In this document: one piece after another, positions 54,039-54,084 of the stretch
Numbering within the stretch: the first letter of the stretch is position 1
Layout of the letters: each line of letters opens with the position of its first letter
Assembly (NCBI RefSeq): GCF_003334785.1
Contig: NZ_QOWV01000001.1
From: Escherichia coli
Lineage (GTDB): Bacteria; Pseudomonadota; Gammaproteobacteria; Enterobacterales; Enterobacteriaceae
Length of the DNA: 64,000 nt
Reading direction: 5' to 3' (one strand)
Translations under genes and position numbers: made by a program
Notes under the pieces: generated by a model
Told to the model about the DNA's origin: nothing
The model's input: the letters and a program-made list of their open reading frames with translations, nothing else
Databases searched by the model: none

Positions 54039-54052
54039 AACAAAAAACCCAT
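54039..54052. repeat. Candidate attR core (right copy of 14-bp direct repeat)
   Basis: AACAAAAAACCCAT is identical to 42452-42465. Confidence 0.6.
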
Positions 54053-54084
54053 CAACCTTGAACCGAAATGGCGGGGTTGATGGG
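54039..54084 (-). terminator. Rho-independent terminator of ybjL
   Basis: Perfect 10-bp inverted repeat CCCATCAACC / GGTTGATGGG (17-nt loop) followed on the minus strand by TTTTTTG. Confidence 0.7.

Follow-up and report, generated by a model that had tools for sequence, protein, structure and literature searches.

P2-family phages are known to target the conserved terminators of small RNA genes (rybB, cyaR, ssrA, and tRNAs) and to bring along a duplicate of the 3′ end, which lets the target gene survive integration. Described 3′-end integrators include 186 at tRNA-Ile, Fels-2 and SopEPhi at ssrA, and HP1 at tRNA-Leu (Nilsson et al. 2011, PMC3448106). Archer et al. (2011, PMC3032704), in describing the E. 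coli W genome, give ‘cyaR RNA’ as the insertion site of P2-type elements and ‘rybB ncRNA’ as that of the P2-like prophages Rybb*W, Rybb*B, and Rybb*Cr, and Nilsson et al. catalogue PhiECO1, PhiECO2, and PhiECO3 at the rybB site, with PhiECO1 located directly after rcdA in E. coli HS. In the portions considered here, both papers name the rybB site and do not spell out the attachment core as the 3′ half of a terminator stem plus its U-tail. RybB itself, as characterized for the K-12 sequence to which that of our locus is identical, is an sRNA that is transcribed by sigma-E, binds Hfq, and represses omp mRNAs, and its gene lies in the ybjK-ybjL spacer with a Rho-independent terminator at its end (PMC1804206, PMC5736990).

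The 64,000-nt stretch of E. coli DNA analyzed here (contig NZ_QOWV01000001.1, assembly GCF_003334785.1; hereafter, the window) illustrates the same rule. We read the 11.6-kb insertion that it carries, with high confidence, as a 186-type P2-like prophage seated at the rybB terminator, the gene being rebuilt through the attP copy of its 3′ end. The arrangement is already known, and the window adds one more, degraded case to a group in the literature. Its host site, core, and P and P′ arms are also those of PhiECO1 in E. coli HS, whose integrase and arm consensus are likewise of the 186 type; Rybb*B carries retron Ec86, whereas the element in the window is an 11.6-kb remnant with an A′-′T fusion and PD-Lambda-1 cargo. 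The Klebsiella phages KP12 (OM835953) and 4LV2017 (KY271398, Elveevirus) are, in contrast, full length; joining the ends of the window’s element reproduces the KP12 attP at 98% identity, and the annotated attL and attR of 4LV2017 adjoin a near-identical RybB terminator. The identity between attL and attR spans 19–20 bp in Klebsiella (GCAGGCAACAAAAAACCCAT) versus 14 bp in E. coli. The KP12 record (L002, OM835953, clone KP12_3) is filed under Vequintavirinae, although the contig is a P2-like genome with int, ogr, D, and tail genes, and the KP12_3 contig is probably a co-purified induced prophage rather than part of the named phage.

P2 itself makes comparable use of the cyaR terminator. The 27-nt core annotated in the P2 attP is identical to the 3′-terminal 27 nt of K-12 cyaR, and ogrK adjoins cyaR. 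In K-12 this site holds a cryptic prophage, PR-X, which includes ogrK. As in the window, the target at cyaR is the terminator at the 3′ end of an sRNA that depends on Hfq, the terminator is rebuilt upon integration, and the geometry agrees: ogr neighbors the 3′ end of the sRNA gene, and int, encoded on the sRNA strand, occupies the opposite end of the element. The sRNA, the core, and the integrase specificity differ, however, and the arm consensus is of the P2 type (tgTGGaCa). Phages that integrate at tRNA and tmRNA genes resemble the window in that the 3′ end of a small structured RNA gene is repeated in attP, the gene survives, and the target is conserved across genera. In the window the target is the terminator of a regulatory sRNA, whereas tRNA integrators use the acceptor or T-arm, and the core measures 14–25 nt at rybB versus 50 nt (PhiESP) and 110 nt (PhiKPN) for tRNA-Met integrators (PMC3448106). 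Finally, the Salmonella sdsR/ryeA-ryeB locus is an insertion hot spot (PMC3333887) and, like rybB, an sRNA locus to which horizontally acquired DNA has repeatedly attached, although locus and elements differ.

The Terminal Repeat Is an Attachment Core

An exact copy of AACAAAAAACCCAT lies at either end of the insertion, at 42452–42465 on the int-proximal side (attL), where the K-12-identical host sequence stops, and at 54039–54052 (attR), confirming the 14-bp repeat on which an earlier note had built its attachment-site reading. Taken alone, an exact direct repeat of this length is not above chance, as the window holds 25 exact direct repeats of at least 14 bp; its significance comes from its position, since it marks the exact point where the empty-site sequence of K-12 and Nissle resumes and since a phage genome contains the two element ends fused without a break at a single core copy. 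The repeat extends imperfectly over 26 nt, with 22/26 positions matching between 42440–42465 and 54027–54052.

To represent the empty site, attB was reconstructed as an 800-nt sequence with a single core copy between the left and right host flanks, and it was compared with 5426 complete E. coli genomes. Of these, 4294 contain it without a break, many of them, including Nissle, at 100% identity, and roughly 1130 have it split. K-12 MG1655 is identical to the window over 1976 nt of the left flank and 1945 nt of the right, exactly up to the core on both sides, and the core present at both element ends occurs in a single copy in the empty host site. The converse join of element right end, core, and left end is contiguous in Klebsiella phage KP12, where 600 of 600 nt align at 98.2% and the attP sequence lies between ogr and int. 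The GenBank record of 4LV2017, in turn, annotates attL and attR on the same sequence as the att sites of the window.

The number of comparable repeats arising by chance in the window, together with the A-rich, low-complexity composition of this one, would suit a chance match or the target-site duplication of a transposable element. Yet the repeat coincides to the base with the insertion ends relative to K-12, sits at the junction of a contiguous attP, is annotated as attL/attR in a GenBank phage record, and is flanked by a tyrosine integrase gene and arm repeats, and these junctions are found again in over 1100 genomes; the empty site, the contiguous attP, and the K-12 flank match effectively refute such an origin, leaving it a probability close to nil. 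Empty site, attP, integrase, and arm repeats thus agree on an att core. Judging from the sequence comparison, strand exchange would be located within the 14 bp. Inverted symmetry around the core, sought as a sign of core-type Int sites and a 6–8-bp overlap, is weak and consists of one TAAAT/ATTTA pair 19 bp apart.

The Core Lies within the Terminator of the sRNA Gene rybB

The minus strand encodes a complete RybB (54039–54120) that takes in the right core. An Rfam scan matches RF00110 at 54039–54117 over its full length (105.3 bits versus a gathering score of 40, model positions 1–79 of 79, not truncated, E = 8e-23), and the 79 nt annotated as rybB in K-12 (b4417) correspond to 54042–54120 with 79/79 positions identical. 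In the K-12 annotation the gene lies between rcdA and ybjL, in the same spacer as in the window and on the ybjL strand. Six bases before the +1 G (54120) stands a consensus match to a sigma-E-type promoter, GAACTT-N16-TCTTA (54127–54153, minus strand), which is the single match to this pattern in the whole window; the sigma-E dependence of rybB is established (PMC1804206, PMC5736990).

The gene ends in a Rho-independent terminator hairpin (54048–54084, minus strand) with perfect 10-bp arms, CCCATCAACC (54048–54057) and its reverse complement GGTTGATGGG (54075–54084); two occurrences of the 10-mer CCCATCAACC were found against 0.14 expected by chance. The hairpin is the paired region of the Rfam consensus structure, has a minimum free energy of −24 to −25 kcal/mol (z = −2.8 to −3.3), and shows on the minus strand the makeup of an intrinsic terminator, with a 10–12-bp stem followed by UUUUUUGUU. 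Furthermore, the primary RybB 3′ end in published MG1655 Term-seq data (887977) corresponds to window position 54040, the second base of the core.

The earlier note had described the perfect 10-bp hairpin accurately and named it the ybjL terminator, an assignment that gives way to the complete, separately promoted rybB gene identified by the Rfam match, the K-12 identity, and the Term-seq 3′ end: the hairpin is the terminator of an independent sigma-E sRNA gene and not primarily that of ybjL. The ybjL stop codon (ybjL, 54197–55882, minus strand) lies 76 nt upstream of the rybB +1. A terminator scan found no separate ybjL terminator between this stop (54197) and rybB, and the published Term-seq tables consulted here list no other 3′ end between the two genes. 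Since the interval holds no other terminator-like site, the RybB terminator may serve for ybjL transcripts as well. The chief value of the present analysis lies in this correction, by which a supposed protein-gene terminator turns out to be that of a well-studied regulatory RNA gene.

The rybB stretch bears no annotated feature in the sampled RefSeq (PGAP) E. coli genomes, with the exception of K-12 MG1655, and the gene is therefore easily missed.

With the gene in place, the geometry of the overlap can be restated. CCCAT (54048–54052) is indeed common to the right core copy and the plus-strand 5′ arm of the hairpin, as had been reported; on the transcribed minus strand, however, it belongs to the 3′ arm, which reverses the strand logic of the original description. 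Nor does the overlap stop at these five bases, as all 14 bp of the core fall within the RybB terminator: read on the minus strand, the attR core (AUGGGUUUUUUGUU) consists of the 3′ half of the stem (the last five bases of the 3′ arm) and, in the other nine bases, the U-tail. The comparison with the empty site, which the earlier note had set as a check, places the core of K-12 and Nissle in a pre-existing host terminator. As the host 3′ end is included in attP, integration restores the host element, and the proposed phage strategy of sparing host 3′ ends stands in this respect, with the amendment that the gene preserved is rybB. The regeneration, which had been thought partial, is complete, given that all 79 nt of rybB match K-12.

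The rcdA Strand Has No T-Tract at Either Hairpin

On the opposite side of the spacer, rcdA (ybjK; 41899–42435, plus strand) ends with its stop codon 16 nt before the left core. In the model of the earlier note, one hairpin serves the convergent genes rcdA and ybjL, and a weaker hairpin beyond the left core copy partly regenerates the rcdA terminator after integration. The right hairpin is the first strong stem-loop 3′ of both genes, with no other terminator-like site found between the ybjL stop and the core, and folds well on the plus strand too (−26.8 kcal/mol); in the integrated state, moreover, rcdA again has a hairpin at equal distance. We nevertheless consider the model quite unlikely, as the terminator is owned by a complete, independently promoted sRNA gene and a bidirectional terminator is not seen at either position. 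The plus strand continues with CTCCACAAAA after the right hairpin and AATGAAAAC after the left, a terminator scan found no plus-strand terminator at either, and the absence of a T-tract on the rcdA strand leaves a shared convergent terminator without support. The left hairpin also carries an A-C mismatch on this strand, folds there with z = −0.07, and is phage DNA that belongs to attP. Finally, the published Term-seq tables consulted here list only the minus-strand RybB 3′ end at this position; rcdA has no 3′ end among those listed and is named only as antisense to the RybB 3′ end, which is weak negative evidence given that rcdA is poorly expressed and the tables may be truncated.

A Phage-Borne Hairpin Adjoins the Core at attL

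The left core copy is followed, as previously observed, by a weaker hairpin with one mismatch (42459–42480), whose properties depend on the strand. On the plus strand (AACCCATTTA-TG-TAAACGGGTT) the A-C mismatch leaves a fold no better than that of shuffled sequences (−5.6 kcal/mol), with no T-tract behind it. On the minus strand (AACCCGUUUA-CA-UAAAUGGGUU, then UUUUUGUU) the mismatch becomes a G-U pair, UUUUUUGUU comes next, and the minimum free energy is −9.0 kcal/mol (z = −1.8 to −2.0); the scan calls a terminator on this strand only, with a stem of 9 pairs, a loop of 4 nt, and TTTTGTTATC as its tail. The hairpin occurs in the KP12 attP and is, for that reason, phage DNA; its 3′ arm and tail are supplied by the core. 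Its presence in free attP, its terminator-like character on the minus strand alone, and its chance-level fold on the plus strand dispose of the proposal that it is a rebuilt rcdA terminator. The hairpin stands 60 nt downstream of int, the final gene of a minus-strand run of cI, PD-Lambda-1, and int. A T at the variable base in E. coli HS and SY3626 replaces G-U by A-U on the minus strand and makes the stem perfect, and the hairpin is kept where the neighboring P′ arm has diverged. The variant shared by the window, KP12, and 4LV2017 breaks the DNA palindrome and retains the G-U pair of the minus-strand RNA.

Most likely, the left hairpin is a phage terminator, predicted to end the lysogenic cI/PD-Lambda-1/int transcript in both the free phage and the prophage; the reading rests on a consensus scan, a modest fold (−9 kcal/mol), and a single informative polymorphism. 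What would be modestly new here is that attP brings its own 5′ stem arm and that the core is predicted to complete a terminator with it in attP and attL alike. No clear phage-borne 5′ arm completing a hairpin was seen in the P2 attP. The same inverted repeat could instead act at the DNA level, as a core-type or accessory site for Int, IHF, or Apl in attP: it abuts the core inside attP, forms a perfect palindrome in some relatives, is conserved beside a diverged P′ arm, and belongs to a family whose attP regions are, per the P2 annotation, dense in protein sites. Against this stand the T-tract and the terminator score on the int strand and the variant of the window, KP12, and 4LV2017, which spoils the DNA palindrome yet keeps the RNA pair; the crossover, moreover, cannot be in the repeat, since attB has no homologous sequence there. 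We regard a DNA site in place of an RNA terminator as the less probable option, if still a credible one, and the two roles are compatible with each other.

Taken together, these elements outline the most probable course of events. A P2-like phage of the 186 regulatory type integrated at rybB by means of its tyrosine integrase, its attP bringing the last 14 nt of rybB within up to 25 nt of sequence native in E. albertii. Strand exchange, presumably in the common core, left an intact rybB at the ogr-proximal junction (attR), and the second core copy at the int-proximal attL completes the phage hairpin and its U-tract on the same strand. On this scheme integration swaps only the sequence beyond two co-oriented terminators, both of which would remain intact. 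A later deletion fused gene A to gene T in frame. A further and very unlikely idea is that the attP/attL hairpin endows the constitutive lysogenic cI/PD-Lambda-1/int transcript with a RybB-like, Hfq-binding 3′ module, or that the altered downstream sequence changes RybB termination. The former, if true, would imply a 3′UTR-derived Hfq-bound RNA or competition with RybB for Hfq; the latter would shift outer-membrane-protein control and phage receptor levels in about 20% of E. coli.

We also scanned IMG/VR for covariation in the hairpin. Integrases 99–100% identical to that of the window occur on at least 80 IMG/VR contigs, and the best 80 integrase loci, all at this level of identity, yielded three att junctions, as most contigs end three bases past the int stop. 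A scan with the bare 14-mer was unspecific: among the new loci, the att context was present in one and the rest were chance matches.

The Insertion Is a Deleted 186-Type P2-Like Prophage

The element (42452–54052) comprises int, PD-Lambda-1, cI, an apl/cII region, dam, the A′-′T fusion, U, D, and ogr. It keeps the P2-type gene order int-cI ... A ... T-U-D-ogr, with the segment from A to T deleted and the integrase gene adjoining attL. The 350-aa tyrosine integrase (42540–43592, minus strand) matches phrog_1 (integrase, E = 6e-75) and is named ‘phage integrase’ in its RefSeq relatives. At the opposite end, an ogr/Delta-like late activator is the last gene before attR (53743–53961, plus strand; phrog_603, RefSeq ‘ogr/Delta-like zinc finger’). 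Further genes were identified as those of the CI repressor, the apl/cII early region, a Dam methylase, gpU, and gpD. Between int and cI lies a gene for a 558-aa protein (43675–45351, minus strand) that matches PD-Lambda-1 models (E = 2e-120) and whose homologue is named ‘SNIPE associated domain-containing protein’ in RefSeq; it is defense cargo within the lysogenic operon of the prophage.

A RyhB-like Rfam match in the int/PD-Lambda-1 spacer (43590–43658, minus strand) scores 28.5 bits, below the gathering score of 55 (E = 0.08), and is most likely due to chance.

The 1034-aa fusion ORF (48969–52073, plus strand) joins a gpA replication nickase (residues 2–434) to a tail tape measure protein (residues 435–1034). 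Comparison with full-length relatives puts the deletion junction at about 50269/50270, and the in-frame A′-′T fusion is the product of the deletion that took the capsid, lysis, and most tail genes; about two thirds of the prophage genome has been lost. The size of 11.6 kb had raised the question of a P4-like or PICI satellite, which is ruled out by the P2/186 backbone with its internal deletion; what remains is a P2-like prophage in decay, of the 186 type in its regulation.

Predicted arm-type Int sites are found on both sides of the core as direct repeats matching the 186-type arm-binding consensus, tgccGCCActt (PMC3448106). In the P′ arm, TGCCGCCACTT and then TGTCGCCACTT form a tandem of 11-bp sites at 42561–42582 (plus strand); in the P arm, TGCCGCCATTT and then TGTCGCCATCG do so at 53965–53986 (plus strand), with the same consensus and orientation. 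A repeat search also revealed two tandem copies of an 18/19-bp repeat (AAAACAATAAGTTAGGTT) in the P′ arm, in the interval between the hairpin and the int stop (42485–42521), which could be protein-binding sites, for example for IHF, Apl, or Int. The AAAACAATAAGTTAGGTT stretch has diverged in SY3626 and in one IMG/VR contig, while the hairpin is kept.

Occupancy of the rybB Site in E. coli and Other Enterobacterales

Consistent with the roughly 1130 genomes in which attB is split, the attL junction is present in 1123 and the attR junction in 1110 of the 5426 complete E. coli genomes, and about 20% of the genomes have both. The attR junction is also found in Rosetta2(DE3), a BL21-derived strain of the B lineage. 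With about one-fifth of complete E. coli genomes occupied at rybB, and Rosetta2(DE3) among the strains concerned, the insertion is relevant to anyone engineering or quantifying RybB.

Beyond E. coli, we surveyed 120 species-representative Enterobacterales genomes that hold rybB. The Escherichia/Klebsiella-type RybB tail AUGGGUUUUUUGUU is widespread among them. In E. albertii and E. whittamii, rcdA follows rybB at 20 nt and the native sequence equals attP over 25 nt (ATGGGTTTTTTGTTGCCTGAAATTT); the match to attP comprises 19–20 nt in K. pneumoniae and has diverged to 14 nt in E. coli. An Ogr, gpD, or Int homologue is encoded within a few kb downstream of rybB in 12 of the 120 genomes, Serratia, Raoultella, Enterobacter, Kosakonia, and Escherichia among them.

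Several minor features of the locus deserve mention. In many Enterobacteriaceae, represented here by 15 loci, rcdA lies 0.4–8 kb from rybB instead of 8–60 nt, and where rcdA is displaced, sequences resembling the IHF-site consensus often occur about 35 nt from the RybB tail; the combination suggests remnants of earlier integrations at rybB. Furthermore, the 11 nt just past the RybB U-tail (GCCTGAAATTT or near variants) recur from E. albertii to Yersinia and Serratia, even with rcdA directly next. Five loci and many others show this stretch or a near variant immediately 3′ of rybB, whereas E. coli has ATCTAAAACTT instead. The conservation of these 11 nt beyond the terminator could reflect a host function or long-term selection or conversion by phage att sites. 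Finally, other insertions occur at or near the rybB-rcdA spacer: EC24 (NZ_CM169477) has an IS1B copy there, with rcdA listed twice, and 23CRST011 (NZ_AP045770) carries an insert of about 1 kb annotated as a serine acetyltransferase.
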